A stretch of 32,000 nt of DNA from Ktedonobacterales bacterium (lineage in GTDB: Bacteria; Chloroflexota; Ktedonobacteria; Ktedonobacterales; JADMIN01), in NCBI GenBank assembly GCA_030167145.1, contig CP126532.1, positions 1,080,001-1,112,000 of the forward strand, given 5' to 3'. The notes below the pieces were generated by a model. The model worked only from the letters and a program-made list of their open reading frames with translations, ran no database searches and was not told where the DNA came from. The first letter of the stretch is position 1; the number at the start of each line of letters is the position of its first letter. The position numbers were made by a program, and so were the translations under genes. Below, in pieces: positions 2,068 through 21,779 of the stretch.

Positions 2068-2982
2068 TTACACCTCCTCGTAGACCACCGCACGGCAGGT
2101 GTCTGGCAGGAAAACATAGAGCAACTGTCGCTGATCGTCGTAGGCGGTGGTGTGTGTGCCATCTTCGGTCGGAATGTGCTGCTCAATGGTCATAGATCTT
2201 GTATTGACGACTTCTAGGACACCAGGCTGGTCAATAGCGACATAGAGCCGCGAGTGTTTGCGATTGAACCATATCGCATCCGGAGGTCCAGCAATGGGTG
2301 TGCTCGCTAGCTCCTGCCCGGTCGTCAGATCCAGCGCGACAACCGATGCCGCGTCACAGGCAATGAAGGCTTGACGCGTCGTGGAGTCAATGTCCAGGCC
2401 ATGAGGACCTGCACTGGATATCGGAAACTGCGCGATCACCTGCGCCGTATGCGCATCGAGAGCAACGACACACGCTGGCTCGCGGATGTTGACAAGAAAT
2501 CGCTCAGCCTGGTAGTCATAGACACACCAGCGCGGCCTACCAGGCAACGCGGCAATGGCATGCACCCGACCAGCGCCCCCGGCACGGGGATCGGTGAAAT
2601 CCAGAAGACGTGCGGTGTTCTCTTGTACATCGGCGACCAACAGACGTTTATTGACGGCATCCCAGGTGAGGCCGTTGGGACGCGGCCCAACTTCCACTTC
2701 ACATAGAAGAGCGCCAGTCATCACGTCAAATGCCAGAAGCTTGCCTGCGCCACGCGCAGCGGCAAAGACGACGCCAGCGTCCTGCGCGCAGATCACCCCG
2801 CTGCCTTCCGGGCAACCGGGAAGCGTCATGAGGTGCTGGCCTTGCTCGCCGTCCAGCATCTCGACGGTATTCACTGCGGTATGAGCGACGTAGACACGGC
2901 CGGTTGCCAGATGCACATCGCCGTGATCGAATTCACTGGTTGTTCCAGGTGGAATCGCGATGTGGCGCCGAAGTTGTAGCAT
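2068..2982 (-). CDS. YncE/YVTN-like beta-propeller repeat protein (cytoplasmic; no signal peptide seen)
   Basis: 304-aa ORF with repeated blade-like segments (...RVYVAHT..N.V..LD...; ...RLLVADV...; ...RLYVAI...). GAGGAG SD lies 7 nt before the ATG at 2982. Confidence 0.65.
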   Translation of the reverse strand: MLQLRRHIAIPPGTTSEFDHGDVHLATGRVYVAHTAVNTVEMLDGEQGQHLMTLPGCPEGSGVICAQDAGVVFAAARGAGKLLAFDVMTGALLCEVEVGPRPNGLTWDAVNKRLLVADVQENTARLLDFTDPRAGGAGRVHAIAALPGRPRWCVYDYQAERFLVNIREPACVVALDAHTAQVIAQFPISSAGPHGLDIDSTTRQAFIACDAASVVALDLTTGQELASTPIAGPPDAIWFNRKHSRLYVAIDQPGVLEVVNTRSMTIEQHIPTEDGTHTTAYDDQRQLLYVFLPDTCRAVVYEEV

Positions 2983-3016
2983 TTCGTACTCCTCTCAGGT
3001 CAGGCGAAATCAGCCG

Positions 3017-3436
3017 TTAGTTCGCTTCGCTTGCCAACTGGGCGTAGAGGGCATCGAAGAGCAGTGCGCCCCGCTCCAGCGCGACATGATCGTCCGAGCT
3101 GACACGCCGAAGGCCACGGCAGAGCGCATCAAGACCTGGAGCCAGCGGCTCTAACGCAATCTCCTGCACTACGTCGGCTTCATCTACGATGCGAGCGATA
3201 CGCTGAAGGATCGGATCGGTCAGGTCATACTTGCGTAGAGTTGTATAGAACGAGCAGTGCCCGCGCCTGTGCGATAGCCGCGCACCTGGTATATCAAATG
3301 GCTCAGCGCCATCTGGCAGCGGCTTGGCGCCAACAGGAATAAAGAGGAATTCAGCGTTGCTATCAATGGAGCGCCGAATCAGCCAGGCGCAGGCCATCCG
3401 GTCAACACCGACCTGTTCCCAGGTAACCCATTTCAC
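3017..3436 (-). CDS. ChrB C-terminal (Chrome_Resist-type) domain protein, paralog 1
   Basis: MKWVTWEQVGVDRMACAWLIRRSIDSNAEFLF ... HRRGHCSFYTTL. The start is GTG, overlapping the upstream stop as GTGA (3433-3436). Confidence 0.8.
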   Translation of the reverse strand: MKWVTWEQVGVDRMACAWLIRRSIDSNAEFLFIPVGAKPLPDGAEPFDIPGARLSHRRGHCSFYTTLRKYDLTDPILQRIARIVDEADVVQEIALEPLAPGLDALCRGLRRVSSDDHVALERGALLFDALYAQLASEAN

Positions 3437-3900
3437 TGGTCTTGCCTTCCTCCCGCTTCTCTGGCTGTCTCAAGTACACTACGAACTTGCTGCCCAAGCT
3501 CCGAGTGAAAGTAATCTTGCAAATACACTTGTTGGTAGCGCTGAGCCACCGCTGCCAGATCCGCGTCATCGGTCGCAAGTTCGGCAAGCAACTCGCGGTA
3601 ATGTGGCTCGACTAGCCCTAGAAACTGCTGTACGAGCGCCTCATCCCGGCCTGCCAGATTCAGATGCGCCTCCCAAACCAGTGCGCTTCCGTCGAACTCA
3701 CTGATTTCGGCGGCAAGCCACTGGAACTGTTCGAGCGTGAAAGCGGTTGCGGGCAGCACCCAGACCGCATCGTGCAGCAGCAACGCGCCTAGCCGCTTGA
3801 GTTTGCGCCAGATGTAGACACGCCGCGCCGACGGCGTTGGCGGAATTTTGTAGTGTAGCAGCACCCACCGGCGCACATTTCCGTCCTTCTTTGGTTGCAC
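3433..3900 (-). CDS. ChrB N-terminal domain protein (putative DNA-binding half of a split ChrB)
   Basis: RRWVLLHYKIPPTPSARRVYIWRKLKRLGALLLHDAVWVLP resembles the N-terminus of full-length ChrB regulators. GTG start at 3900. The stop overlaps the next gene's start. Confidence 0.7.
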   Translation of the reverse strand: MQPKKDGNVRRWVLLHYKIPPTPSARRVYIWRKLKRLGALLLHDAVWVLPATAFTLEQFQWLAAEISEFDGSALVWEAHLNLAGRDEALVQQFLGLVEPHYRELLAELATDDADLAAVAQRYQQVYLQDYFHSELGQQVRSVLETAREAGGRQDQ

Positions 3901-4030
3901 ATGACTCGCCCCACGAGCGGACGAGTGTATAGGGTGGCGCCCTAAGCGGCGTGGTACCCACCACGATTAGCAACCCAGATGCTTTCATGTCTGCTATGCA
4001 CTCACTGAGACACTATCGTGGCGCTGTCTA

Positions 4031-4046
4031 TGTAACAACGGTTACA
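4031..4046 (-). promoter_or_regulatory. Perfect inverted repeat TGTAAC-N4-GTTACA, a candidate operator over the predicted transcription start
   Basis: The palindrome was read directly. It abuts the -10 hexamer of the promoter at 4046-4074. Confidence 0.5.
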
Positions 4047-4074
4047 TTGTACCCAATGCTGCACAAAAATGCAA
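4046..4074 (-). promoter_or_regulatory. Sigma-70-type promoter TTGCAT-17 nt-TACAAT for the chrB-like operon
   Basis: On the minus strand the -35 TTGCAT is at 4074-4069 and the -10 TACAAT at 4051-4046, with an exact 17-nt spacer. It lies about 140 nt upstream of the GTG at 3900. Confidence 0.6.
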
Positions 4075-4086
4075 TGAGCGCATCTC

Positions 4087-4134
4087 AACACAAACCGAAA
4101 GGCGGCCCGCGAGCCTCATGCTCCACGTGCCGCC
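4087..4134 (-). terminator. Possible intrinsic terminator after the 4169-4957 gene
   Basis: Minus strand: GGCGGC ... GCCGCC stem with an inner GAGC/GCTC pairing, followed by TTTCGGTTTGTGTT. The loop is long, so the call is weak. Confidence 0.35.
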
Positions 4135-4168
4135 TCGCCGAAGGGCGTGTATCTGCGATTCGCGCGGA

Positions 4169-4957
4169 CTACGCCGCCGGGGTCGCCGTCACCTGCGCGC
4201 CACCAGACGCCGAGGTGTCCGACTTCAGCATGCCAACAATATTCTTCAGATCAGCGCCCGCGTTCTTGAGGTCAGTAAACGCTTGTTTCTCATCATTCTT
4301 GAGGTTGCCAAGCGCGGTCAGGTAGGCAGATTGATTGTTGTTGAAGTTCTCCGGCGTCAGTTGCGGCAGCTCACCCTGCGCCGCGTCAATCTGCGACTCC
4401 GCATCGCCGAGTTGGTTCTTGTAGTCCGTGAACCAGGCGTTGAGTTGCGTCTGCTGGTCCGCCGGGGCCTTGCTGATCGCGTCGGCAATCTTGCCCTCCA
4501 TGCCCACCAGCTTATCGTGCAGGTTGATCATGCGATCCAGGAACAGGGTGCGATAATCGCGCGGCAACACCACCGCGTAGATGCGGAACTGAAGGAAGAT
4601 GTTCTTCACATCCGTGCGCGCCGTCGTAGCGTCGGTATCGCCATCCAGCTTGGCCTTCAAATTGGTCAGCCCTGTCTGGTTCGTCGAAACGTCGGCCTCA
4701 AGCGCATTCGCCTGATCGCTGCTGATGCGCTTCGCGGTGAGGGCGGCGGTCACTCTGGCGTTCAGCGCGGTCAGCGATGCCTGGCGCGCGGCGATCAGGG
4801 CGTCGCCAACGCCGATGATGCACTTCACATTGCCGGCACACCCCCCCACCGAGGGCGCGGCCAGCGCCGTCGCTGGAATCGCGGCGCAGAGCGAGAGGAT
4901 GGTCAGCGCGCCCAACAGTATGGCGCGAAAAGGACGCTTGCGGAAAAATGTCAACAT
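4169..4957 (-). CDS. Secreted hypothetical protein, predicted helical
   Basis: N-terminal signal peptide MLTFFRKRPFRAILLGALTILSLCAAIPATALA/AP. AGGAG SD lies 9 nt before the ATG. No family recognised. Confidence 0.7.
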   Translation of the reverse strand: MLTFFRKRPFRAILLGALTILSLCAAIPATALAAPSVGGCAGNVKCIIGVGDALIAARQASLTALNARVTAALTAKRISSDQANALEADVSTNQTGLTNLKAKLDGDTDATTARTDVKNIFLQFRIYAVVLPRDYRTLFLDRMINLHDKLVGMEGKIADAISKAPADQQTQLNAWFTDYKNQLGDAESQIDAAQGELPQLTPENFNNNQSAYLTALGNLKNDEKQAFTDLKNAGADLKNIVGMLKSDTSASGGAQVTATPAA

Positions 4958-5011
4958 GGTCGAGACTCCTGCTATCCTGAAGATTCACACAGTCCATCAC
5001 GGCGCCAGGCG

Positions 5012-5323
5012 CTACGGATTGACCGGGTTTTCCTGACTGGCATTGTCGGCGTTGGTTACGTCGTTGCTGGCGCCATTCAATTCGTTGAATTGCTGCTGAA
5101 TATCCTGATAGCTGCTGATCACCTGCGACGCGGAACTGTTGTCGCCGCCGCTGGTCTGGCCGCCCTGCTGTGTGGCGCTCGTCGAGGTTGTATTCGCGCC
5201 GTTGCTGCTCTGTTCACGGTGTCCGAGCCGCCCGCCGCAAGCCGAAAGCGCCAGCCCCATCACCAACAAGCCAACCACCAGTACGGCCAGCGCGCGCCGC
5301 CGGAACCGCATGTGTTGTGTCAT
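5012..5323 (-). CDS. Small lipoprotein (hypothetical), S/T/N/Q-rich
   Basis: The internal start at 5323 has a GAGGAG SD. The signal ends in the lipobox L-S-A-C. The longer 149-aa ORF in the track lacks an SD. Confidence 0.6.
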   Translation of the reverse strand: MTQHMRFRRRALAVLVVGLLVMGLALSACGGRLGHREQSSNGANTTSTSATQQGGQTSGGDNSSASQVISSYQDIQQQFNELNGASNDVTNADNASQENPVNP

Positions 5324-5558
5324 ACCGCTGCTCCTCACATATGAAAAGAATTGAGCGATGTTCCTGCTTCGGCGTCCACCAATGGGCATGCGAAGCCTCA
5401 CTGAGGCTATGCTAGTCGTCACGGCTGAGGATCGGCTGAGCAGTTCTTTAGAAAATGCCAAGAAAGCGTCAGGGTTACTTTTGGGTAGGTGTGCGTCCGC
5501 TCATCCAAAGACGCGGGCCATGTGTATGTGCAGGTGAGGGTACCCGCAGGAGCATCTC

Positions 5559-6077
5559 GTGAGTCTCCATCTCATGCGCCTGAAATCGGTCAGGCGCGCG
5601 CCATCCACCACTCCGCCCGCGAAGGTTTCACAAACGGACTGGCTGGTGGCAGTTACTATCGTCGGCGCTGGCGTCGTCTGTTTCGCGCTGTTGCTCTGGG
5701 GGCATTTGGGCCTCAGCGCATGGCTTCATCCGCCCGCGCCCACCGCGACACAGCTCGTCACCACTGCCGGACCCTACGCAGTGACGGCGCGGCTGGCATC
5801 GGGCCAGCTCACAGCCGGTGGCCCCAACAGCGTTGTCCTTGCCGTGCGCGATCACGCGGGCTACCCGCTCACCAACGTCAAAATCGAGGTGCGGGCCACC
5901 ATGACCACCATGGCTATGGACGCGCCCGCGATACCGGTGCGCGCCAGCGCAAACGGTCAGTTTCTGGCCAATCCACGCTTCGGCATGGCTGGCACCTGGC
6001 GGCTGGACGTGATCATCACCGCGCCCGGCCAGATGGCGCAACACGCAAGCTTCAGTGTCAGTGTCCGGTGGGGCTGA
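5559..6077 (+). CDS. Membrane-anchored FixH/YtkA-like domain protein
   Basis: GTG start with AGGAG 6 nt upstream and one N-terminal TM helix. The Ig-like segment ...NSVVLAVRDHAGYPLTNVKIEVRATMTTMAMDAP...GTWRLDVII is typical of YtkA/FixH domains. Confidence 0.6.
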   Translation: MSLHLMRLKSVRRAPSTTPPAKVSQTDWLVAVTIVGAGVVCFALLLWGHLGLSAWLHPPAPTATQLVTTAGPYAVTARLASGQLTAGGPNSVVLAVRDHAGYPLTNVKIEVRATMTTMAMDAPAIPVRASANGQFLANPRFGMAGTWRLDVIITAPGQMAQHASFSVSVRWG

Positions 6078-6125
6078 TTCGCGTCCCACCGCACTGCAAT
6101 CGCATCCTTGAAAGGACCACCTCTC

Positions 6126-6518
6126 ATGGCCAATATCGCCAAACTCTACGCGCAACTGCTGGGCATCGTGCTGACACTGGTCGGCCTATTGGGCTTCGTC
6201 GGCGCGCTCGCCCCCGATAGCCGCCTACTGGGCATCTTCGCGATTGATCCGTTCCACAACGTCATCCACCTGCTTTCAGGTATCGTCGGCCTCCTCGCTG
6301 GTTTCGCTGCTGGCAGCCGGTATGCGCGCCTGTATGCAGGTGTCTTCGGCGTCGTCTACGGGCTGGTCACCGTCGTCGGCTTCATTCAGGGCACGACCGT
6401 TCTGGGCCTCATCTCGGTCAATCTGGCGGATAACGTGCTGCACCTGCTGATCGCGGTAGCGTCGCTGGGAGTGTTCTTTCTCTCCAGCGACACCACCACT
6501 GCTCCGGCCCGCGCCTGA
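6126..6518 (+). CDS. DUF4383-like small membrane protein
   Basis: Four hydrophobic helices with the FxxNxxHNVIHLLxG and DNVLHLLI motifs. AAAGGA lies 9 nt before the ATG at 6126. The track ORF starts at a TTG at 6108. Confidence 0.65.
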   Translation: MANIAKLYAQLLGIVLTLVGLLGFVGALAPDSRLLGIFAIDPFHNVIHLLSGIVGLLAGFAAGSRYARLYAGVFGVVYGLVTVVGFIQGTTVLGLISVNLADNVLHLLIAVASLGVFFLSSDTTTAPARA

Positions 6519-6608: not shown

Positions 6609-7013
6609 TCACCGGGGTTGCTGGCCGTACTCTTCGTCAGTCACGTGCTCGCCCCAGGTCGCGCTATTGCCTGCGTCGTCCACCTGGAGCATTGCGAGGT
6701 GGGTCATGAAGCGGTTGGGGGCCGCGCCGTGCCAGTGATCCTCACCTGGCTCGAAGAACACACGGTCACCGGGGCGGATGACCTCCACTGGCCCGCCGCG
6801 CCGCTGGCACAGGCCCATGCCCTCGGTGACATAGATGGTCTGGCCGTTGGGGTGGGTATGCCAGGCCGTGCGGGCGCCCGGCGTGAAGTGGACACTGCTC
6901 GCGCTTAGCCGCGAGGCCGCTGACGGCATCGCGACCGCGTCAACGTAGACCGCGCCCGTGAACCACTCGCTCGGCCCAGCCATGGTCTCGATAGAGTTCT
7001 TGGTGACCTGCAT
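6609..7013 (-). CDS. Cupin domain protein
   Basis: Cupin motifs are G.RTAWHTHPNGQ and PGEDHWHGA. GGAGAA SD precedes the ATG at 7013. Confidence 0.75.
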   Translation of the reverse strand: MQVTKNSIETMAGPSEWFTGAVYVDAVAMPSAASRLSASSVHFTPGARTAWHTHPNGQTIYVTEGMGLCQRRGGPVEVIRPGDRVFFEPGEDHWHGAAPNRFMTHLAMLQVDDAGNSATWGEHVTDEEYGQQPR

Positions 7014-7074
7014 GTCGTTCTCCGTGTCTTGTTGTGGGACCCATTCAGTTCTCATAAACTACGTGGTTGTTGCA

Positions 7075-7467
7075 CTACGGGTTCGTTCCGCGCGGCACGA
7101 GTTTGAGTGTCGCGGCTCGTGCTTGTGGGGTGAGGGTGGTATTGACAATACCCGTGGCATAGCGGCGGTACTTGGCACGGTAGGCGGCGTCTATGGCGTT
7201 GTTCACATCGTCGCTGGCGTCCACCTCCACCAAGGTGACGTCTTTCTCGACGCCGCTGGCCTGGATGTGGCCTTCATGGCGCGCCTGCGCGGCGCGGAAC
7301 CAGCCGCCGCCACGCCCGTTCACGGAGCGGACATAGAGATTGTCGCCGTGGCGCACGACCCAGATCGTCACCGATGTGCGCAGTGTCCCATTGCGACGCT
7401 CCAGCGCAATCTCCAGCTCTTCTGCTGCCCCAATCCTGGTAAGCTCGTCATTGCTCCATGTCGCCAT
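7075..7467 (-). CDS. DUF2255 family protein
   Basis: MATWSNDELTRIGAAEELEIALERRNGTLR..VTIWVVRHGDNLYVRSVNG...AYRAKYRRY is typical of DUF2255. It has its own perfect AAGGAGG SD 7 nt before the ATG at 7467. Confidence 0.75.
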   Translation of the reverse strand: MATWSNDELTRIGAAEELEIALERRNGTLRTSVTIWVVRHGDNLYVRSVNGRGGGWFRAAQARHEGHIQASGVEKDVTLVEVDASDDVNNAIDAAYRAKYRRYATGIVNTTLTPQARAATLKLVPRGTNP

Positions 7468-7821
7468 AGGTATGCCTCCTTCGTATGTGATGCCAGGTGC
7501 GGTGTAGGCGTCAATGGCTACGCGAGCCATAACGGCACACCGTACCGTATGCGCAAGACGCCCGAAGGTTTCGATGGTCCTGCCAAGGGCCGCCCGCACC
7601 TCCGCGTCCTGCCGCACGTCGCACGTGACGGCGAGCGCCCGCCCGCCAGCCGCTTCGATCATCCGGGCCGTTTCCTGGCTGCCCGGTTCCGACACGTCGG
7701 CGACCACGACGCTGGCGCCCGCGCGGGCGAATGCCAGGGCGGTAGCCCGGCCAATGCCGCTTCCCGCTCCGGTGATAAACGCGACCTTTCCCGCGTAGCT
7801 TCCGTTCAGGTTCGTTGCCAT
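7468..7821 (-). pseudogene. Short-chain dehydrogenase (SDR) remnant read in frame into the DUF2255 gene
   Basis: The Rossmann N-terminus KVAFITGAGSGIGRATALAFARAG...CDV...TIETFGRL is intact with an AAGGAGAA SD (ATG 7821). The central catalytic part (NNAG, S, YxxxK) is missing. Only a possible C-terminal trace remains (VAIDAYTAP versus VDGGYTA). Confidence 0.6.
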
Positions 7822-7910
7822 GTGGTTCTCCTTGCCACTCGCTTTGTTGCTCACGTCTCTGATGAATGGCATCGTCGCGACGATGGTGTGGTAGCCGACG
7901 ATGGGTTACC

Positions 7911-7935
7911 GTCAGTTGCTGTCAGTTGCTGTCAG
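7911..7935. repeat. 10-bp tandem repeat gtcagttgct x2.5 spanning a stop codon
   Basis: Read directly. The TGA stop of the 7922-8317 gene lies inside the second copy. Confidence 0.85.
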
Positions 7936-8317
7936 CGGAAAACGCGATCACAACTGGGAGGGCGGTGCGGCCCCACTCGTCGAGGTTGTCGCCCTTCCGG
8001 TACTTGTGGACCAGCAGTGCGCGCGCCCGTTGATCCTCGGCTGTGCCTGGCTGGAGGACACAGGCCACGCCGACGTGCGTCTCGTTCCCCAGCTCGACCA
8101 TGACGTGCGCGTTCGCCTGGAGATTGCGCACCCAGTCGGACCGCTCGCGGCCACCGGCAAGCAGGTACACGCGCCCATCCTGCGTGGCGAACCAGATCTC
8201 GATGCGATGGGGCTGGCCAGTCCGCCGCCCGATCGTAGTGAGATACGCATATGGTTCGCTTGCCCATTGCGCCAGCCACTGCCGCATACCGAGTGATTTT
8301 TCGGTCAATGTCCACAT
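7922..8317 (-). CDS. Deazaflavin (F420)-dependent nitroreductase-family / DUF385-like oxidoreductase
   Basis: LTTIGRRTGQPHRIEIWFATQDGRVYLLAGGRERSDWVRNLQANAHVMVE is the typical G+xSG.PR ... W..NL.A.P core. The start is uncertain (8317, 8287 or the GTG at 8356). Confidence 0.65.
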   Translation of the reverse strand: MWTLTEKSLGMRQWLAQWASEPYAYLTTIGRRTGQPHRIEIWFATQDGRVYLLAGGRERSDWVRNLQANAHVMVELGNETHVGVACVLQPGTAEDQRARALLVHKYRKGDNLDEWGRTALPVVIAFSADSN

Positions 8318-10769: not shown

Positions 10770-11651
10770 CTATCCTCTGGCCAGCCACGCATCGCGCAGT
10801 GTTTTCGCCTCGTACAAGGTCGCTTCGAGGGTGGTGTCGGCGCTGGCGAGCCGCTCGCGCAGATCGTGGAGTGTGGCCAGGTAGGCGTCGAGCGCGGTCA
10901 GCAACGGCTGCGTATTGGTCAGGCAGATGTCGTGGCCCATTCGCGGATCGCCGGACGCGACCCGCGTGCCATCGCGAAATCCGCCTGCCGCGAGCCGCCG
11001 GGCAGCGGGCCAGTTCGGCATGCCAGCGGCGGTGAGCATCAGCGCGACGGCGCTCAGCAGCGGCAGATGGCTGATGAGCGCGACCGCCGCATCGTGCTGC
11101 GCTGGCGCTATCATCAGGGGCTGCGCGCCGAGGGCGGCGATCAGCGATTGTGTGCGCTGGAGCGCCCGCGCACTGGTGCGCTCGGTCGGCGTCAGGCACC
11201 AGACGCAGCCGCGATAGAGACCCGCGTCCGCCGCCTCGACGCCGGAGCACTCGCTCCCCGCCATTGGGTGCCCGCCGACGAAGCGCGCGGCATTGGGTAG
11301 CGCCTCCTCGGCCCAGTGTGTTACCTCGGCTTTCGTGCTGCCCAGATCCGTGACGATGGCGCGCGGCGCGAGGTACGGCGCGACCTCTGCCAGCAGCCCA
11401 CGCAGCGTCAGCACCGGCGCGGCAAGCACGACAAGGCTCGCCCCCGTCACCGCCTCAGCGGCGGTCGCGCATGCCTGATCCACCGCGCCGCGTTCGCACG
11501 CCCGCTGCGCCATGCCTTGCGCGGCATCGTAGCCCGCGACGGAGCGCGCCAGTCCCCCCGCGCGCAGCGCCATGCCCAACGACGCACCCATCAGCCCCAG
11601 ACCGAGAATCGCCACGCGACGAAACGGCACAACCGTGGCAGATGTAGCCAT
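10770..11651 (-). CDS. tyrA: Prephenate/arogenate dehydrogenase
   Basis: The NAD fold is VAILGLGLMGASLG, followed by DLGSTK, GGHPMAG and the TyrA C-terminal helical domain. The ATG at 11651 has an AGGAG SD. An alternative ATG at 11675 overlaps the aroH stop as TGATG. Confidence 0.85.
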   Translation of the reverse strand: MATSATVVPFRRVAILGLGLMGASLGMALRAGGLARSVAGYDAAQGMAQRACERGAVDQACATAAEAVTGASLVVLAAPVLTLRGLLAEVAPYLAPRAIVTDLGSTKAEVTHWAEEALPNAARFVGGHPMAGSECSGVEAADAGLYRGCVWCLTPTERTSARALQRTQSLIAALGAQPLMIAPAQHDAAVALISHLPLLSAVALMLTAAGMPNWPAARRLAAGGFRDGTRVASGDPRMGHDICLTNTQPLLTALDAYLATLHDLRERLASADTTLEATLYEAKTLRDAWLARG

Positions 11652-11674
11652 GCGCGGCTCCTGTCGTCTATGCA

Positions 11675-12058
11675 TCAGCTAGCACTAGCGCGGTCAACCG
11701 CAAACCCAGGCCGCAACATCACCGCCTCGCGCAGGTACACGTGGCGCATCTGCTCCTGCGTCCGCTCTGTGTTGACATGCAACAACACGCGGATGCAGCG
11801 CGTCAGCCCGCCCGGCACGGGAATCTCGCGGGCGCAGAGCAGCGCCACCTGCTCCCAGCCCGCCTGGCGTGCGGCCAGCGCCGGATAGGCGGCATCAAGG
11901 TCATCGGTCACGGTGAAAAAGACGCTGGTGATCTCATCCACATCGAGCGTGTTGTGCGCCACCAGCGCGACCAGTAGTTCACGAGTGGCGGCCAGAATCG
12001 CCTTGCTGGTGTTCTCGGCGACGGTCGTCGCGCCACGAATCCCACGGCATCGCATCAT
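11675..12058 (-). CDS. aroH: AroH-type chorismate mutase
   Basis: 127 aa. MMRCRGIRGATTV ... GLTRCIRVLLHVNT ... MRHVYLREAVMLRP is colinear with Bacillus AroH (MMIRGIRGATTV ... CIRVMM ... IRHVYLEKVVVLRP). A GGGAGA SD is present. Confidence 0.9.
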   Translation of the reverse strand: MMRCRGIRGATTVAENTSKAILAATRELLVALVAHNTLDVDEITSVFFTVTDDLDAAYPALAARQAGWEQVALLCAREIPVPGGLTRCIRVLLHVNTERTQEQMRHVYLREAVMLRPGFAVDRASAS

Positions 12059-12147
12059 AGTCTCGTCTCCCTCTCTTATATGGCTTCTGCGCGTTCGCCC
12101 TTCACCTATGTCGTAGGGGCGTCCGGCAGACGCCCGGCCTCGCGGGC

Positions 12148-12179
12148 AACAAAAAAGCAGAAGCATTGCTGCTTCTGCT
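12148..12179 (-). terminator. Intrinsic terminator hairpin inside the aroH 5' leader (candidate attenuator)
   Basis: Minus strand: AGCAGAAGCA-GCAA-TGCTTCTGCT, a perfect 10-bp stem with a GNRA loop, followed by TTTTTGTT. It lies 89 nt upstream of the aroH ATG. No upstream minus-strand gene is present for it to terminate. Confidence 0.7.
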
Positions 12180-12217
12180 GCCCTTCGACGGATTGTGCGG
12201 CGGATGCACCGCTACGC

Positions 12218-12313
12218 CTAACGCTCGCGCGGCGACACCATCAGCCCACCCCGGCAAAGGGCGGGCCGATAATACCCATAACGGTCTGTTCGCGCAAGAC
12301 GTGTGTGCATCAT
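12218..12313 (-). CDS. Candidate leader peptide MMHTRLARTDRYGYYRPALCRGGLMVSPRER with three TAT Tyr codons
   Basis: The ATG begins exactly 7 nt after the -10 hexamer, predicting a leaderless start. Codons 12, 14 and 15 are TAT. The ORF ends 38 nt before the terminator stem. It is too short to appear in the ORF track. Confidence 0.45.
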   Translation of the reverse strand: MMHTRLARTDRYGYYRPALCRGGLMVSPRER

Positions 12314-12319
12314 GGCGGC

Positions 12320-12349
12320 AGTATAGCCGCGACCACTGCGCGCTGTCAA
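12320..12349 (-). promoter_or_regulatory. Sigma-70-type promoter TTGACA-18 nt-TATACT for the aroH-tyrA leader
   Basis: On the minus strand the -35 TTGACA is at 12349-12344 and the -10 TATACT at 12325-12320. Confidence 0.6.
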
Positions 12350-12473
12350 CCGCCGCGCGCCGCCAGCCGCGCCAGAACGCCGAATTGGCGATACAATAGA
12401 GGTGAGACGAAGGCGATACCAGACCAGCTATTGAAGCATACACAGATTTGGAGAGGAAGAGAGTGGAGAGCGT

Positions 12474-13262
12474 ATGGCGGTAACGATCAAAACGCCACAA
12501 CAGATCGCGCTCTTGCGCGAAGCGGGGCGCATCGTGGCGGAGACCTACGAGGAGCTTGCCCCATACGTGCAGCCCGGCGTCACCACGGCGGAACTGGACC
12601 GCCGAGCGGAGGAGTTCATTCGCCGCAAGGGCGCGCTGCCGATGTATAAGGGCTACGGCGCACTGAGCGACCGCCGGGGGCATGTGCTGCGCCCGCCATT
12701 CCCCGCGACTATCTGCGTGGCCATCAACGACGTGATCTGCCACGGCATCCCCAGCCCGAAGCAGGTGTTGCAAGAAGGCGACATCATCGGCATAGACATC
12801 GGCACGCTCTATCGCGGCTGGGTTGGCGACGCTTGCCGCACCTTCGCCGTCGGCGCAATTGACGCCGAATCGCAGCGGTTGATGGATGCCTCGCACCGCT
12901 GCCTGGAGCTTGGCATCGAGCAGGCGCAACCGGGCAATTATATCGGCGACATCGGCGCGGTCATCCAGAAGTATGCCGAGGGGCAGGGCTTCTCGACTGT
13001 ACGCGAACTCACTGGCCACGGCGTAGGCCGCGCCCTTTGGGAAGACCCGGCGGTTTTCCACTTCGGCAAGCCGGGCACCGGCGAGCGCATCGTACCGGGC
13101 ATGGTCTTCACCATCGAGCCGATGATCAATGCCGGAAAACCCGACATCCGCACACTGCCCGACAAGTGGACCATCGCCACCGCCGATGGCTCGCGCTCCG
13201 CCCAGTACGAGCACTCCATGGCGATCACCGAGCACGGCCCTGAACTGCTGACTGTACTCTAG
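12474..13262 (+). CDS. map: Type I methionine aminopeptidase
   Basis: MAVTIKTPQQIALLREAGRI ..., NDVICHGIP, DIGTLYRGWVGD, TGHGVG, FTIEP, and EHSMAIT carries the metal ligands. A GGAGAG SD is present. Confidence 0.92.
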   Translation: MAVTIKTPQQIALLREAGRIVAETYEELAPYVQPGVTTAELDRRAEEFIRRKGALPMYKGYGALSDRRGHVLRPPFPATICVAINDVICHGIPSPKQVLQEGDIIGIDIGTLYRGWVGDACRTFAVGAIDAESQRLMDASHRCLELGIEQAQPGNYIGDIGAVIQKYAEGQGFSTVRELTGHGVGRALWEDPAVFHFGKPGTGERIVPGMVFTIEPMINAGKPDIRTLPDKWTIATADGSRSAQYEHSMAITEHGPELLTVL

Positions 13263-17208: not shown

Positions 17209-18834
17209 ATGGTATTCCATCCCGTGTTTTCCAAAGGGCGCTGGCGTCATGCATTTGCCGCAGTTGCGCTCTGTGTGCTCGTTATGAGCATGCAAGTTGC
17301 GTTGTCGCCAACCGTAAGCTGGGCACACCCCAGCGGTAATGGACCACAGGGCAAAGACGGACTCTATATCGTCGGTTCCGGCGGATGGTCTGGCTCATCT
17401 TCCACCAGTGATGCCGCGCACGGTTGGGGCGACGATCAATGGCAAATCAATCCAACACATACGACGCGTGTCTACGTCACAGTGACGGATTGCTGCATCG
17501 TCGGCGACAATTTCACTGTTTACATTGATGGCCACGCCATCGGCACCACCCCACCCGAACCACTCAACGGCTCCACTGCCAGCAAAGGCACCGAAAGCCA
17601 CCTCGTGGGACCAGGCAAGCACCTCATCACTATTCAAGACATTGGCGGCATCAAATACTACCGCCAGGGCAACTCGTATATGATTCCCGCCGGTTATAGC
17701 GTCAGCATCTCCCTGAAGACTGAGAGCGTGGATCAGCCAGTCATCTTCGTTCATGGCATCGGTCAGGATTCCAGTAAGGCGGGCTTCGGTTCACTCTATT
17801 CGGCGATAAATCACGCATTTGGCGCGAACCCGACGACCTTCGACTACGTGGATGATCGTGCGGACGGCACTGGCTGCAAACAGCCGCCATGCGACAGCCA
17901 GAGCGCCGTACTGGACAACGCCAAGCAACTCGCACAGAAAGTGGCCGATGCGTATTCATCCAAACACCAAAAAGTGACGCTTATCGGCTACAGCATGGGC
18001 GCTGCCATCATCAGAACAATGCTCGCGGGCTGCCCTGAGTCAGGCGATACCACCTGCCAGCAAGCGCATACGCATGTCAACGCCGTTTACTTCATCGAAG
18101 GCGTGCAGCAGGGATCCGTCTTACTTCAGACGGAGCAAGGCTTCGAGACCGCCATCGCCAATGGCATGTTTCTTGGTGGCGTCACCGCCGATCCAGCAAT
18201 GGTAGCCGAGATGGCGGTTGCTGAATGGGCTGCGCATCAGGTAGTGCAAACTGCGCTGCACCTCAACCTGAATGACCTGGCAGAGGCCGACCTGGCGCCA
18301 GTGAGTGACAACATTCTGCTGCGTAACGGGGCGGCGCCGCCACGAGGGATTGACTACTACAACTTCTATGGCGATATCCAGATCGGCCTGAAGGAGAGCA
18401 TTTTTGGCTGGACATTGCCGGCTACTTTGCACGTTGGTGATCTGGTCATCTTGCCAGGAACGGATAACCCGCAAGATACTCCCGACTCCGGTGGATCGCG
18501 CTTCTGCCAGGGCTGTGGTGATCACGCTGGGTTCGAGTCGAAGCAGATAGATTCGTCCACATCGTTCACACAGTGGGCGCTCACTGATACGATCTACTTC
18601 ACCTCTGGCCAGATGTATAGCTGCTTGAACGCGGCCACCACCCTCAACGCGAGCGACTGGCAGACCTGCCTTGACGCATTTACCCAACTCTTCAAGGCCC
18701 CGGAGTTCCACACGAATATCCCCGACACGATCAACAGCATCACTGTCCATGACAACACTGGCGCCAAAGGGAGCGTCACGCTGCCACAGGAAATCGTGCG
18801 CCATATGGAACTGGAAGCGGGGATTCTGCCATGA
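17209..18834 (+). CDS. Secreted multidomain alpha/beta-hydrolase (lipase/esterase-like)
   Basis: The signal peptide is ...AAVALCVLVMSMQVALSPTVSWA/HP, followed by an N-terminal domain of about 150 aa. The hydrolase part has PVIFVHGIGQDSS and the nucleophile elbow LIGYSMGAA (GxSxG). The C-terminal ~200 aa are unassigned. Start is 17209 (GGAGA SD) or the GTG at 17146. Confidence 0.7.
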   Translation: MVFHPVFSKGRWRHAFAAVALCVLVMSMQVALSPTVSWAHPSGNGPQGKDGLYIVGSGGWSGSSSTSDAAHGWGDDQWQINPTHTTRVYVTVTDCCIVGDNFTVYIDGHAIGTTPPEPLNGSTASKGTESHLVGPGKHLITIQDIGGIKYYRQGNSYMIPAGYSVSISLKTESVDQPVIFVHGIGQDSSKAGFGSLYSAINHAFGANPTTFDYVDDRADGTGCKQPPCDSQSAVLDNAKQLAQKVADAYSSKHQKVTLIGYSMGAAIIRTMLAGCPESGDTTCQQAHTHVNAVYFIEGVQQGSVLLQTEQGFETAIANGMFLGGVTADPAMVAEMAVAEWAAHQVVQTALHLNLNDLAEADLAPVSDNILLRNGAAPPRGIDYYNFYGDIQIGLKESIFGWTLPATLHVGDLVILPGTDNPQDTPDSGGSRFCQGCGDHAGFESKQIDSSTSFTQWALTDTIYFTSGQMYSCLNAATTLNASDWQTCLDAFTQLFKAPEFHTNIPDTINSITVHDNTGAKGSVTLPQEIVRHMELEAGILP

Positions 18835-19676
18835 AACGACAGCAAATAGTCTACGTCATCGGGTTAGTGATCGTGCTGGTGGCTGCCGCTGGTCTGGATG
18901 TGGTGGTGGGAACGCCAGCCTCGCACTCCTGCCAGACCGCCGCGCTCACTACCGCTGGCAATGTGCGTTTCAACGATACACAACAGCACACGAGCTTCGT
19001 CGTGCAAACTGACACCCATGCGCCCGACGCGGGCAAATTCACCTATCTCACCGCAAATGGGGCGCAATATCGCGGCGGCCCGGCATCTGGGCTGACCACA
19101 TCGGCGGCGTCCATGGCCGCTGGCGATCCGCTCGCCTGCGCGGGCTATCTGCATCTTACCTTTGACGGAACCACGACACTGACTACACCAGGGGCAGAGG
19201 GACATCCCGCGACCAACAGCCAGGCCACCATCCATCTGGTCGCGCTGCTAAATCTCGCCCACCTGACCGCCAGCACCACCCTCACCGATAATACCAACCA
19301 CACATCATTCACCACTGTTACCTCCGCCCCACCTGATATGCGCGGCGCGGTCAATACGTACACACAAGCTGCCATACAGCAAGACTGGCAGACCGTCTAT
19401 CCGCTGCTTTCCAGGTCGGCAATCGGCAGCTACAGCGAATCACAATTCGCTGCCGCCATGAAAAAGCAGGTGGATACGGTAGGCGCGCTAACCGCGGCCA
19501 CTATCACCTCCGCGCCACAGGTGCATACCACGACGCTAGGGGTGACCTACTTCACGGTGAATGAACAGGTCACCATGACCCGAAAAGGCACACCAACCAC
19601 CACGAATCAGATGGCTGTCTATGTGCTCGAAGACAACGCCTGGAAACTCTGGTTCACTCAGCCAGCCCAGGCATAA
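18831..19676 (+). CDS. Membrane-anchored hypothetical protein with a possible NTF2-like C-terminal domain
   Basis: ATGA start/stop overlap with the hydrolase gene. It has one N-terminal TM helix (IVYVIGLVIVLVAAAGL) and a T-rich ectodomain. Confidence 0.6.
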   Translation: MKRQQIVYVIGLVIVLVAAAGLDVVVGTPASHSCQTAALTTAGNVRFNDTQQHTSFVVQTDTHAPDAGKFTYLTANGAQYRGGPASGLTTSAASMAAGDPLACAGYLHLTFDGTTTLTTPGAEGHPATNSQATIHLVALLNLAHLTASTTLTDNTNHTSFTTVTSAPPDMRGAVNTYTQAAIQQDWQTVYPLLSRSAIGSYSESQFAAAMKKQVDTVGALTAATITSAPQVHTTTLGVTYFTVNEQVTMTRKGTPTTTNQMAVYVLEDNAWKLWFTQPAQA

Positions 19677-19689
19677 GGAGTAGACAACA

Positions 19690-20556
19690 ATGGATCCAGA
19701 GTCTGCACAACAGCCCACCGACCCAGGCCAACAACCTGCGTCTCCACCACCTGTACCTCCGCAACCAGTGTCGGGGTCGCCCTACATGCTGAGCGACAAC
19801 ACCTATCCGCCACCAGCGCCACCTAATCCCAATGCCTCTTTCTCTCCACATATGACCGTGCCACCGGTGGCTGCTGGCTCGCAGCCACCTCCGCCCTATC
19901 CCACGCCGTATCCAGGCGCGCCCGCTGGCTACGCTTCGCCGCCGTCCGCGCCTACACCCTATCCCTACGGCGCTGCCCAGCCAGCGAACCAGTATCCAAC
20001 CTTTCCTGGCGCACCCACCACACCGCAGTATTACGGGAGCGAATCGGGCTATTCCGCTCTCGCCACCCCCACACTGCCGCCCTCTTCTGGCTACATGCTA
20101 GAACAGCCGGGCCAACTGGGCCAGCGCGCCGCGCGCCGCCCACTCTGGCCACGAGGCGGCTCGGCCCTGTTCGTGGCAGGCGCAGCCACCTTTATTGCCA
20201 CTTGTTTCCTGCCCTGGTATTCCGTTACCGTCTCCTTCGGCGCGCTCTATTCCGGCTCAGCGGTTGAGCATGCCTGGGGCTATTGGGCAGGCATGCTGGC
20301 GATGCTGGTTGTCGCCGCGGCCTGTCTCCTCTTCATCGCCAGGGCGCTGCGCTTTCGCGGCGCACTTCCGCTCTCTGATAGAGCGCATTACTTGTTCTTC
20401 GGAATGGTCGCGTTGGTCTGCGCCGCGCTCTACCTCGTCCATGCGTTCATCGGCTCGATTCAAAACATGGGTTCTGTGACCGCTGGACCTGGAATCGCGC
20501 TGTATGTTGGCATCGGTGGCGCCTTGCTCATGACACTTGGCGCGCTGCTCATGTAG
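19690..20556 (+). CDS. Hypothetical membrane protein with a Pro/Tyr-rich N-terminal region and about 4 C-terminal TM helices
   Basis: AAGGAG SD lies 9 nt before the ATG. The gene starts 13 nt after the previous stop. The N-terminus contains PPPYPTPYPGAP...PTPYPYG repeats. Confidence 0.6.
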   Translation: MDPESAQQPTDPGQQPASPPPVPPQPVSGSPYMLSDNTYPPPAPPNPNASFSPHMTVPPVAAGSQPPPPYPTPYPGAPAGYASPPSAPTPYPYGAAQPANQYPTFPGAPTTPQYYGSESGYSALATPTLPPSSGYMLEQPGQLGQRAARRPLWPRGGSALFVAGAATFIATCFLPWYSVTVSFGALYSGSAVEHAWGYWAGMLAMLVVAAACLLFIARALRFRGALPLSDRAHYLFFGMVALVCAALYLVHAFIGSIQNMGSVTAGPGIALYVGIGGALLMTLGALLM

Positions 20557-20596: not shown

Positions 20597-20643
20597 CCTC
20601 TAACCAACCTGTTGGCAACAGCCGCAAACAGGTCGGTTAGAGG
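20597..20643. terminator. Long interrupted hairpin between convergent genes: CCTCTAACC-AA-CCTGTT-loop13-AACAGG-TC-GGTTAGAGG
   Basis: 15 paired bp read directly. There is no U-tract on either strand. The right arm overlaps the last queA codons and its stop. Confidence 0.4.
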
Positions 20644-21779
20644 ATGAGCATGGCATCGCCGAAGCTGTAGAAGCGGTAACGCTGGGCAACAGCTTCGGCG
20701 TAGGCGCGCAGCGTGAGGTCGCGCCCGGCGAAGGCGCTGACAAGGACGACGAGCGTGGAGCGGGGCAGGTGGAAGTTGGTGAGCATGACATCTACGGCGC
20801 GGAACGTATAGCCCGGCTGGATGAAAAGTGAGGTACGGCCACGGTAGGGCATGACGAGGGCGCTGTTATCTGCTTCGGTACGCGCATCTCTCTCGCCTTC
20901 GGCTACGATGTCGCTGGGAATAGCACTCGGAATGCCGGTTGAGTTGATTTGACCACGCTGGGCGGCGGTGAGGGCGGCGACGCTTTCGAGCGTGCGCACG
21001 GCGGTGGTGCCGACGGCGACGATACGCCCGCCTGCCGCGCGTGTGCTGTTGATGCGCGCGGCGGTAGCGGCGGTCAGTTCAATCTCTTCGCTGTGCATTT
21101 TGTGGTCAGTGAGGTCGTCTTCGGCGATGGGACGGAAGGTGTCGAGGCCGATGTGAAGCGTCACGAAGGCAGTGCCGATTCCCTGAGTTTCGAGCGCGGC
21201 AAGCAGTTCGGGCGTAAAGTGGAGGCCAGCGGTGGGGGCTGCGGCGGACCCTGGCTCGCGGGCGTAGACGGTCTGGTAGCGTTCAGTATCGGCGAGCGGC
21301 TCGTGGATGTATGGGGGCAACGGCATGGCGCCATACGCGGCGAGGGCTTCGGCGACGCTGCCCGTTCTGGGAATCAGCCGTACAATACGGCCACCAGCAG
21401 GCGTGGTGGAGAGCGTTTCGGCGAGCAGCGCGCCATCGCCGAAGATGAGCCGTTGCCCCGCGTGGATGCGCTTGCCAGGGCGCACGAGGGCTTCCCAGCA
21501 GTCGGGGCCGATGTCGCCGCGGCTGGCGAGCAGCAGCAGTTCGACCTGGCCGCCGGTGCCCTCTTTAACGCCGCGCAGGCGTGCGGGCAAGACGCGGCTC
21601 TGGTTGGCGACAAGCAGATCATCGGGATGAAGATAGTCGCCAATGTCACGGAAAGTGCGATGCTCGATGAGACCGTTGTGGCGATGGAGGACGAGCAGAC
21701 GTGAGCTATCGCGTGGCTCGACAGGATGCTGGGCAATAAGTTCAGCGGGCAGGTGGTAATCGAAGTCTTGGATTCGCAT
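20637..21779 (-). CDS. queA: S-adenosylmethionine:tRNA ribosyltransferase-isomerase
   Basis: MRIQDFDYHLPAELIAQHPVEPRDSSRLLVL ..., YQTVYA, AAPTAGLHFT, VGTTAVRTLES, TNFHLPRSTL, and the C-terminus YRFYSFGDAMLIL. Confidence 0.92.
   Translation of the reverse strand: MRIQDFDYHLPAELIAQHPVEPRDSSRLLVLHRHNGLIEHRTFRDIGDYLHPDDLLVANQSRVLPARLRGVKEGTGGQVELLLLASRGDIGPDCWEALVRPGKRIHAGQRLIFGDGALLAETLSTTPAGGRIVRLIPRTGSVAEALAAYGAMPLPPYIHEPLADTERYQTVYAREPGSAAAPTAGLHFTPELLAALETQGIGTAFVTLHIGLDTFRPIAEDDLTDHKMHSEEIELTAATAARINSTRAAGGRIVAVGTTAVRTLESVAALTAAQRGQINSTGIPSAIPSDIVAEGERDARTEADNSALVMPYRGRTSLFIQPGYTFRAVDVMLTNFHLPRSTLVVLVSAFAGRDLTLRAYAEAVAQRYRFYSFGDAMLIL

Follow-up and report, generated by a model that had tools for sequence, protein, structure and literature searches.

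A probable leaderless, tyrosine-sensing transcription attenuator ahead of aroH–tyrA in a member of the Ktedonobacterales

The region considered herein lies upstream of aroH, a chorismate mutase gene on the minus strand of a 32,000 nucleotide (nt) stretch of DNA from a Ktedonobacterales bacterium of the phylum Chloroflexota (GenBank assembly GCA_030167145.1, contig CP126532.1, positions 1,080,001 to 1,112,000); this whole stretch is termed the window, and coordinates refer to it unless another locus is named. In all likelihood aroH and the adjoining tyrA are controlled by a leaderless, ribosome-mediated transcription attenuator that senses charged tRNA-Tyr. This conclusion, which is drawn from sequence comparison and modelled folds, is founded on a short open reading frame (ORF) with a conserved frame and conserved tyrosine codons, and on three covarying helices: a hairpin that begins at the last of these codons (P1), a long-range helix (LR) that excludes it, and an intrinsic terminator (T). 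An attenuator keyed to tyrosine had been proposed in an earlier reading made from the letters alone (the sequence-only reading), and the comparative evidence of conserved frame, Tyr codons and covarying helices supports that interpretation.

The elements of the region are as follows.

12344–12349, minus strand: −35 hexamer TTGACA (promoter scan)
12320–12325, minus strand: −10 hexamer TATACT, separated from the −35 hexamer by an 18-nt spacer (promoter scan)
12218–12313, minus strand: leader ORF MMHTRLARTDRYGYYRPALCRGGLMVSPRER, 31 codons and the stop codon TAG (12220–12218), predicted to be leaderless (ORF reading)
12269–12280, minus strand: regulatory codons TAT (codon 12), GGG, TAT and TAT (codons 14–15), the last two being the TAT-TAY pair that is invariant in the family
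12237–12273, minus strand: P1, a GC-rich hairpin of 16 base pairs (bp), in the position of a 1:2 hairpin or anti-antiterminator (minimum free energy fold, RNAalifold consensus helix)
12255–12262, minus strand: 5′ strand of LR, GCCCUUUG, in the apical part of P1 and 7 nt past the last Tyr codon (RNAduplex, covariation)
12180–12187, minus strand: 3′ strand of LR, CGAAGGGC, the candidate antiterminator strand, ending where the terminator stem starts (RNAduplex, covariation)
12148–12179, minus strand: intrinsic terminator T, a 10-bp stem AGCAGAAGCA/TGCTTCTGCT with a GCAA loop (stem–loop 12179–12156), then TTTTTTGTT, of which the U-run part is UUUUUUGU (terminator scan, consensus helix)
11675–12058, minus strand: aroH, AroH-class chorismate mutase and first regulated gene in the proposal (Pfam CM_1, E 1e-46)
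10770–11675, minus strand: tyrA, prephenate/arogenate dehydrogenase, its start overlapping the aroH stop (Pfam PDH_N, E 2e-36, and PDH_C)
12474–13262, plus strand: map, a divergent gene (Pfam Peptidase_M24)

The promoter matches the consensus at 11 of 12 positions, two promoter-like sites having been found in the 2.5 kb scanned against 0.3 expected. Directly 3′ of the −10 box is the sequence GCCGCC, and the A of the ATG (12313) is the seventh nt past that box, which leaves the leader ORF no space for a 5′ untranslated region (UTR) or a Shine–Dalgarno sequence; the leaderless start is predicted solely from this spacing between −10 box and ATG. The clustering of tyrosine within the ORF is unusual, as Tyr makes up 2.3 % of codons and the YY dipeptide occurs three times in 6770 codons. 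The stem of T begins 38 nt past the leader stop codon, with the aroH ATG (12058) another 89 nt on. This is the only site of the 32-kb window that combines a promoter, an ATG 5–10 nt past the −10 box, a T-run and a short ORF bearing an amino-acid run, and the leader of 174 nt folds better than each of 200 dinucleotide shuffles (z = −3.9).

In these respects the sequence-only reading had been accurate: it described the promoter, the ATG at the seventh nt after the −10 box, the ORF with TAT at codons 12, 14 and 15, a GC-rich hairpin following the Tyr codons (which the fold places at 12273–12237, starting within the last Tyr codons), the terminator with its tail, and the order aroH–tyrA 89 nt further on. 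It had also held that the terminator serves no other gene, and such a role is indeed ruled out, since map runs in the opposite direction and the site is not at the end of a plus-strand gene. Two of its emphases are to be withdrawn. The genome, called very G+C-rich, has a G+C content of approximately 62 %, and TAT, presented as a noteworthy A/T-rich codon, is not rare, with 73 occurrences against 82 of TAC in the long ORFs of the window; a significance of the Tyr codons through the rarity of TAT is thereby ruled out.

With regard to conservation, 80 genomic loci centred on aroH were taken by way of AroH homologues, with 57–77 % AroH identity to the window across all 80; these homologues likewise assign the window to the Ktedonobacterales or their vicinity. 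Fifteen of these are from Ktedonobacterales, and the leader alignments comprise 16 sequences (alignment A2). Rather than lacking a short ORF or Tyr codons before aroH, as would be expected had the sequence-only reading been mistaken, all 15 Ktedonobacterales loci display the full layout ahead of aroH, namely promoter, ATG, Tyr pair, P1, stop codon, LR and T. Each has TTGAC(A/G) at the equivalent position with a spacer of 17–18 nt, followed by TATAGT, TATACT, GATACT, TACACT or TAGAGT as the −10 hexamer and an ATG 6–9 nt later. The encoded peptides begin with 10–15 codons that show no sequence conservation, and then reach an invariant, in-frame TAT-TAY pair that is accompanied by 0–2 extra Tyr codons, so that the run takes the form YY, YYY, YYYY, YWYY or YxYY. 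TATTA and the C that follows it are invariant columns of the 16-sequence alignment; the position of the stop codon is variable. A YY-containing ORF beginning with ATG is present ahead of aroH in 15/15 loci, compared with 0/15 for the reverse complement, a mean of 0.3 (maximum 2) for shuffled sequences and 0/13 for distal segments of the same loci. In a close relative (L147, 94 % AroH identity), the stretch from promoter to terminator is 94–97 % identical, compared with 78 % in both non-coding flanks.

The genes downstream also vary in their arrangement. In the window aroH and tyrA are separate and overlap at 11675, unlike in L001, where they are fused into one ORF of 429 residues (2959–4248) with CM_1, PDH_N and PDH_C domains. 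An ORF of 438 residues in the equivalent position of L011 (2968–4284) is a putative fusion, judged by its length and place.

Both P1 and T were recovered by RNAalifold from an unguided MAFFT alignment of the 16 leaders. For P1, 94.5 % of alignment cells are paired and four of eight pairs show compensatory changes; the values for T are 100 % and, again, four of eight. Taken together, 97 % of cells are paired and 8/16 pairs are compensatory, which none of 500 shuffles matched. The 5′ arm of P1 begins at the last (wobble) base of the last Tyr codon, which forms the first pair of the helix, and P1 of the window, with its 16 bp, is by far the most stable local structure when no stalled ribosome is present.

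The third helix, LR, joins the apex of P1 to the sequence immediately preceding the terminator. In the window, 12262–12255 (GCCCUUUG) pairs with 12187–12180 (CGAAGGGC) on the minus strand. Across the clades, GCCCUUYG or GCCCUCUGGC in the apex of P1 is complementary to CRAAGGGC or GCCAGAGGGU, respectively, just 5′ of the terminator, and the pairing was found by RNAduplex in all 16 sequences. When counted in a further alignment (A3), which was anchored on the invariant CCCU and AGGG, 8/12 pairs of LR are compensatory and 87 % of cells are paired, compared with 30–50 % when the partner is slid; none of 500 shuffles reaches the score. LR and P1 are mutually exclusive because both use the same GCC. 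The GCCC core of LR starts 5–9 nt past the last Tyr codon across the family, which would place it at about the leading edge of a ribosome with its A site on one of the two invariant Tyr codons. The sequence-only reading had found no antiterminator pairing by eye; comparison now provides a candidate in LR, albeit one that in the window only abuts the terminator.

The association of LR with aromatic codons extends to metagenome contigs, which, to test it independently, were scanned with a pattern consisting of CCCTYY and the terminator arms only, Tyr codons being excluded from it. A strong LR duplex (−15 kcal/mol or better) is formed by 22 distinct matches, and in 21 of these a Tyr or mixed Phe/Tyr/Trp run stands immediately upstream; matches with a weak duplex mostly have no aromatic run and are taken to be chance matches. 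Chorismate mutase, DAHP synthase or both are encoded downstream in all nine family matches with an assignable ORF, and wherever downstream sequence was available and checked, the element stands directly ahead of, and is co-oriented with, aroH or a DAHP synthase gene.

From these observations the following mechanism is proposed. Transcription, we infer, would start at the ATG at 12313 or one or two nt from it, and the leader would be translated as a leaderless mRNA. With ample charged tRNA-Tyr, the ribosome would pass the TAT-TAT pair and reach the TAG, upon which P1 would re-form behind it and sequester GCCC-UUUG; CGAAGGGC would then remain unpaired, the terminator would fold, and polymerase would halt at the U-run some 165 nt from the start. 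Should charged tRNA-Tyr become scarce, the ribosome would presumably stall with an invariant Tyr codon in its A site, hiding the 5′ arm of P1 and leaving GCCCUUUG exposed at its leading edge. This strand could pair with newly made CGAAGGGC to form LR, which overlaps or abuts the base of the terminator, with the result that termination would be impaired and aroH–tyrA transcribed. How LR would act upon T may be envisaged in three ways: the bottom of the terminator stem may be kept out of the RNA exit channel of polymerase, polymerase may collide with the stalled ribosome, or a weak GAAGGG:UUUUUU extension of the hairpin may be lost.

Modelling of the stalled state is in partial agreement with this scheme. 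A ribosome was represented as a mask on the 16 leaders, which were folded both complete and cut before the 3′ arm of the terminator; P1 is gone in every sequence under the mask, and LR is formed in most.

A number of points weigh against the scheme. In every masked model of the window the terminator is kept in the minimum free energy structure (RNAfold) with its 5′ arm free. A structure mutually exclusive with the 12156–12179 stem, for which the sequence-only reading had suggested a search by folding, was not obtained in this way, and these folds contain no classical sequestering antiterminator in the window. LR of the window shares zero nucleotides with the terminator stem (...GGGC is followed directly by AGCAGAAGCA...), and its extension into that stem, which was considered as a candidate, is blocked by C-A and C-C mismatches; some relatives gain two further LR base pairs past an internal loop. 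Inspection by eye of the P1 3′ arm and the leader interior revealed no other conserved partner for the terminator 5′ arm AGCAGAAGCA. Free RNA favours LR over P1 thermodynamically in 6/16 relatives, and the model therefore depends on the order of co-transcriptional folding. Were the ribosome to protect the full +15 nt while stalled with its A site on the last Tyr codon, the GCCC of LR would be hidden. Finally, the alignment from which LR was counted was anchored on its own CCCU and AGGG motifs, and is hence biased toward this structure.

An argument that LR nevertheless acts on T comes from the junction between them, which was compared across the 32 distinct members of the family. Measured between the last pair of LR and the first of T, the gap lies between −9 and +1 nt in 32/32 and is 0 in the window. 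LR overlaps the base of the terminator by 1–9 nt in 20 members, the gap is 0 in 11 and +1 in one, and in L004, L008, L011 and L012, for example, AAGGGC itself forms the bottom of the terminator stem. Furthermore, the invariant G-C triple of LR sits at its terminator-proximal end, which is equally the ribosome-proximal end. It is this strict abutment, together with the position of the triple, that argues for an action of LR on T, and we infer that LR would lower termination in the gap-0 layout of the window also.

A more far-reaching proposition, which is advanced tentatively and which we regard as rather doubtful, is that these leaders belong to an undescribed family of leaderless or nearly leaderless aromatic attenuators in several Chloroflexota classes, the first keyed to Tyr, in which the antiterminator would here block termination sterically, with no terminator nucleotide sequestered and no competition for shared bases. 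Under such a steric reading, the invariant CCC/GGG clamp would stop exactly where the terminator stem begins, and at that end the helix would also adjoin the leading edge of the stalled ribosome. Either the lower part of the terminator hairpin would then be barred from the RNA exit channel, or polymerase would be pulled against the stalled ribosome.

Some features of the RNA beyond the terminator may be described at this point. Directly after UUUUUUGUUG, just past the U-run, the minus strand carries GCCCGCGA (12138–12145), a motif that recurs as G(C/U)CC(G/A)CGA in the distant relatives L005, L006, L007 and L013. In the free fold of the window the GCCC past the U-run and the GGGC in the 3′ strand of LR are paired, which may represent a structure of the read-through RNA. 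Between T and the aroH ribosome-binding site there is additionally a GC-rich hairpin, GGCGUCUG-C-CGGACGCC (12118–12134, minus strand), whose only Rfam match is at chance level (a frameshift element, E 7.7). This hairpin is mostly kept in L147, with one substitution in its 3′ arm, and the length of the spacer varies further out.

It is conceivable, if improbable, that the leader peptide does sense tyrosine but with a different output: T would be a constitutive partial stop or a site of small RNA release, and the switch between P1 and LR would act upon mRNA stability, processing or the translation of aroH. The compatibility of LR with T in the window, and the presence of T in all masked folds, would be accommodated by such an arrangement, and both the semi-conserved G(C/U)CC(G/A)CGA and the GGGC–GCCC pairing hint at structure in the read-through RNA. 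Set against this is the junction of LR and T, fixed within −9 to +1 nt in all 32 members with overlap in 20, a constraint that is understandable only through an action of LR on T. The spacer from T to the aroH start, moreover, ranges from 35 to 162 nt across relatives and is poorly conserved, which argues against control at the aroH ribosome-binding site.

A further point against a different output is provided by a sister family in which the candidate antiterminator is of the classical, overlapping kind. Short ORFs with Phe/Tyr/Trp runs are present ahead of aroH in 24–25 of the other 65 loci, mostly from Anaerolineae and including the cultured Anaerolinea thermolimosa IMO-1 (L031), whilst shuffled sequences give 0.1–2. 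Anaerolineae loci with this kind of leader are L025, L027, L031, L036, L041, L046, L050, L053, L055–L057, L061, L065, L066, L070, L072 and L080, with the aroH start near position 3001 in most. Their operon is aroH–DAHP synthase–tyrA, and the leaders, situated approximately 70–300 nt ahead of aroH with an ATG 8–14 nt past the −10 box, are rich in Phe and Tyr with occasional Trp (...FAFYFYYG..., ending ..GGA and a stop codon). The candidate antiterminator, a 2:3 pairing, is formed between GCCGUUGG, in the 3′ arm of hairpin 1, and CCAACGGC, in the upper part of the terminator; examples of the family read MNQPFAFTRWYYFYGYPKRTAVGGA and ...RWFAFYFYYGSR..AGGGA. No match to Rfam was obtained when sister-family loci were searched. 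These leaders resemble that of the window in phylum, in having aroH as the first gene, in the ATG near the promoter, in a run of aromatic codons, in the hairpin that starts from the last aromatic codon and in the terminator; they differ in the mixed Phe/Tyr run, in an unrelated RNA sequence and in the classical antiterminator.

Whether the tyrosine run is read as codons was evaluated from the same 32 members. An in-frame ATG and an open frame to the Tyr run are present in 32/32, even though the run ends anywhere from 36 to 60 nt past the ATG; in most, the ATG is 6–9 nt past a −10-like hexamer. Stop codons in the 30 nt ahead of the run number 0 in the frame of the leader, against 8 and 3 in the two alternatives. 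Every member carries the TAT-TAY pair unchanged and in this frame, with 2–4 Tyr codons, and in more distant relatives Phe and Trp codons join the run or substitute for some of the Tyr codons. The CCCU that follows is likewise invariant, yet it is read as GCC-CTT (Ala-Leu) in one main clade and CCC-TCT (Pro-Ser) in the other because of a 1-nt difference in length; it is thus at the RNA level, not the protein level, that this stretch is constrained. These patterns indicate that the Tyr run is read as codons and that the remainder is conserved as RNA; the variable number of Tyr codons and their replacement by Phe and Trp would suit a codon-counting sensor and not a fixed binding motif.

A translation-independent cis-acting RNA, be it a riboswitch, a T-box-like element or the target of a protein, appears very unlikely. 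UAUUAY would then serve in binding or structure instead of being read as two codons. The conserved core of UAUUAYC, P1, LR and T is, admittedly, RNA-like, a pseudoknot of P1 and LR is conceivable in principle, and tyrosine genes of Firmicutes are under T-box control (PMC1262725). The interior between P1 and LR, on the other hand, has no conserved sequence that might form a ligand pocket, an open frame joins ATG and Tyr run in 32/32 despite its varying length, and, as detailed above, the leaders have between 2 and 4 Tyr codons, for which Phe and Trp codons are substituted before other genes of the aromatic pathway; this suits codons and not a fixed motif. Covariance models of Rfam 15, T-box included, gave no match at gathering thresholds in the whole window or in 17 related loci (cmscan). 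A search of 11900–12600 at E ≤ 10 returned four chance-level matches below gathering scores (two microRNA models, the frameshift element and a CRISPR repeat) and no T-box. T-boxes, known riboswitches and the leader families of Rfam are therefore excluded as identities of the element.

That the ORF is instead an independent small gene, for a 31-residue protein or a trans-acting small RNA that adjoins aroH but does not regulate it, is barely credible: it has its own strong promoter and terminator, and according to two reports on Sinorhizobium (PMC6614838, PMC7298713) released attenuator RNAs and leader peptides can act in trans, but the peptide is unconserved outside the Tyr run, the stretch after the run is in different frames by clade, and the element is always directly ahead of a co-oriented aroH or DAHP synthase gene where checked. 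A function in trans could in any case add to the role in cis rather than replace it.

In outline, the codon content of the leaders follows pathway position: Tyr runs, a few with Phe or Trp, precede aroH(–DAHP synthase)–tyrA, and NWYYFYF precedes DAHP synthase. A simple rule by which leader composition equals operon content was considered and holds only in part, as the operons of L004 and L008 include DAHP synthase, yet their leaders are of Tyr or of Tyr and Trp. In the metagenome relatives L102 (minus strand, approximately 1358–1452), L108 (9900–9994) and L144, the same RNA backbone carries a mixed Trp/Tyr/Phe leader (..NWYYFYFTPP..). Leaders of this NWYYFYF type stand directly before DAHP synthase, with no aroH. 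DAHP synthase is the first enzyme of the pathway common to the three aromatic amino acids, and the arrangement is consistent with the sensing of all three at the entry to that pathway.

Elsewhere in the window, queA (20637–21779, minus strand; Pfam Queuosine_synth, E 4e-133) lies 8 kb from the attenuator. Queuosine modifies the wobble base of tRNA-Tyr, amongst other tRNAs; the proximity is considered a coincidence. A second promoter-like site (ATGACC-16-TATAAT, 12937–12964, minus strand) and a weak terminator-like site (12505–12520, minus strand) are antisense within map, and both are consensus matches only. Five long plus-strand ORFs of 243–408 residues have no Pfam match at E ≤ 1e-5 (4118–5344, 5489–6220, 6958–8103, 18831–19676 and 19690–20556).

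The classical cases of attenuation by leader peptides are trp, phe, his, leu, thr and ilv, and tyrosine genes are known to be under the TyrR repressor or T-boxes. Amongst known aromatic leaders only aroR of Corynebacterium contains Tyr, and it reportedly does not respond to this amino acid. A conserved leader of Tyr codons before chorismate mutase and prephenate dehydrogenase would thus fill the tyrosine gap in attenuation, and would extend the ribosome-mediated form of this control, with leaderless translation as the sensor, to the Chloroflexota. The leaders constitute a natural series, with Tyr before aroH–tyrA, Phe/Tyr before aroH–DAHP synthase–tyrA and Trp/Tyr/Phe before DAHP synthase. Their antiterminators are similarly graded, some overlapping the terminator by as many as 9 nt and others exactly abutting it, and the requirement for such overlap is therefore directly testable. 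In addition, the element flags regulatory short ORFs that are unannotated in metagenome-assembled genomes, and it could be used as a compact tyrosine-responsive part.

As for precedent, a survey from 2005 places tyrosine amongst the amino acids under T-box regulation and reports that no attenuator for it was detected in Actinobacteria (PMC1262725). In the open-access full-text literature we found no tyrosine leader peptide, no attenuation in Chloroflexi and no report of RNA-level amino-acid control in Chloroflexota, an earlier prediction in subscription journals being possible. The sequence-only reading had regarded its combination of features as undescribed. This is too broad, since leaderless translation together with attenuation is known from the trp, ilvB, leuA and aroF leaders of Corynebacterium and from eight leaders of Streptomyces lividans; the mechanism class and the leaderless form are hence familiar, and what appears to be undescribed is the specificity for Tyr, the occurrence in this phylum and the family of RNA.

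With the attenuators of enterobacteria (trpL–trpEDCBA, pheL–pheA, the pheST leader and hisL; general knowledge and PMC11802643) the present element has much in common: a cluster of end-product codons in a short ORF, a hairpin that a stalled ribosome would disrupt, an alternative pairing, an intrinsic terminator before the first gene, and the proposed logic by which read-through would rise upon starvation. It differs from them in that the leader has neither a 5′ UTR nor a Shine–Dalgarno sequence, in that Tyr is the amino acid sensed, and in showing no similarity to Rfam families. The 5′ strand of the antiterminator is here in the apex of the 1:2 hairpin and not in its 3′ arm, and in the window the antiterminator abuts the terminator with no overlap. 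The Tyr T-boxes of Firmicutes likewise sense the charging of tRNA-Tyr and control termination before tyrosine-related genes; they, however, bind the tRNA directly with no involvement of translation, and no T-box model matches here.

The leaderless attenuators of Actinobacteria are also similar. In Corynebacterium glutamicum these comprise trpL, ilvL, leuL and aroR (Neshat et al. 2014, as cited in PMC11802643), with the trp operon under trpL and aroF under aroR. The aroR leader contains Phe-Tyr-Phe and is described as responding to Phe and as unaffected by the availability of Tyr (PMC11802643). A leaderless ilvB leader is known from C. diphtheriae (PMC5784534), and eight leader peptides from Streptomyces lividans, amongst them leuL, trpL, ilvL, alaL, metL and thrL, are leaderless where the start is described, with none keyed to Tyr (PMC8079986). 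As in these systems, the transcript of the window would start on the start codon of the leader, which is followed by one or more hairpins and a U-run; the hosts are similarly high-G+C, Gram-positive-type soil bacteria, and aroR, too, controls a gene of the aromatic pathway. The differences are that none of the actinobacterial leaders is keyed to Tyr, that the present element is from Chloroflexota and unrelated in sequence, and that its start is predicted from the −10/ATG spacing only. The polycysteine leaderless short ORFs of mycobacteria are reported similarly to use a run of codons for a single amino acid in the amino-acid-responsive attenuation of a downstream operon (bioRxiv 10.1101/834739). 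The amino acid there is a different one, and the leader described herein has in addition a canonical intrinsic terminator and covarying alternative helices.

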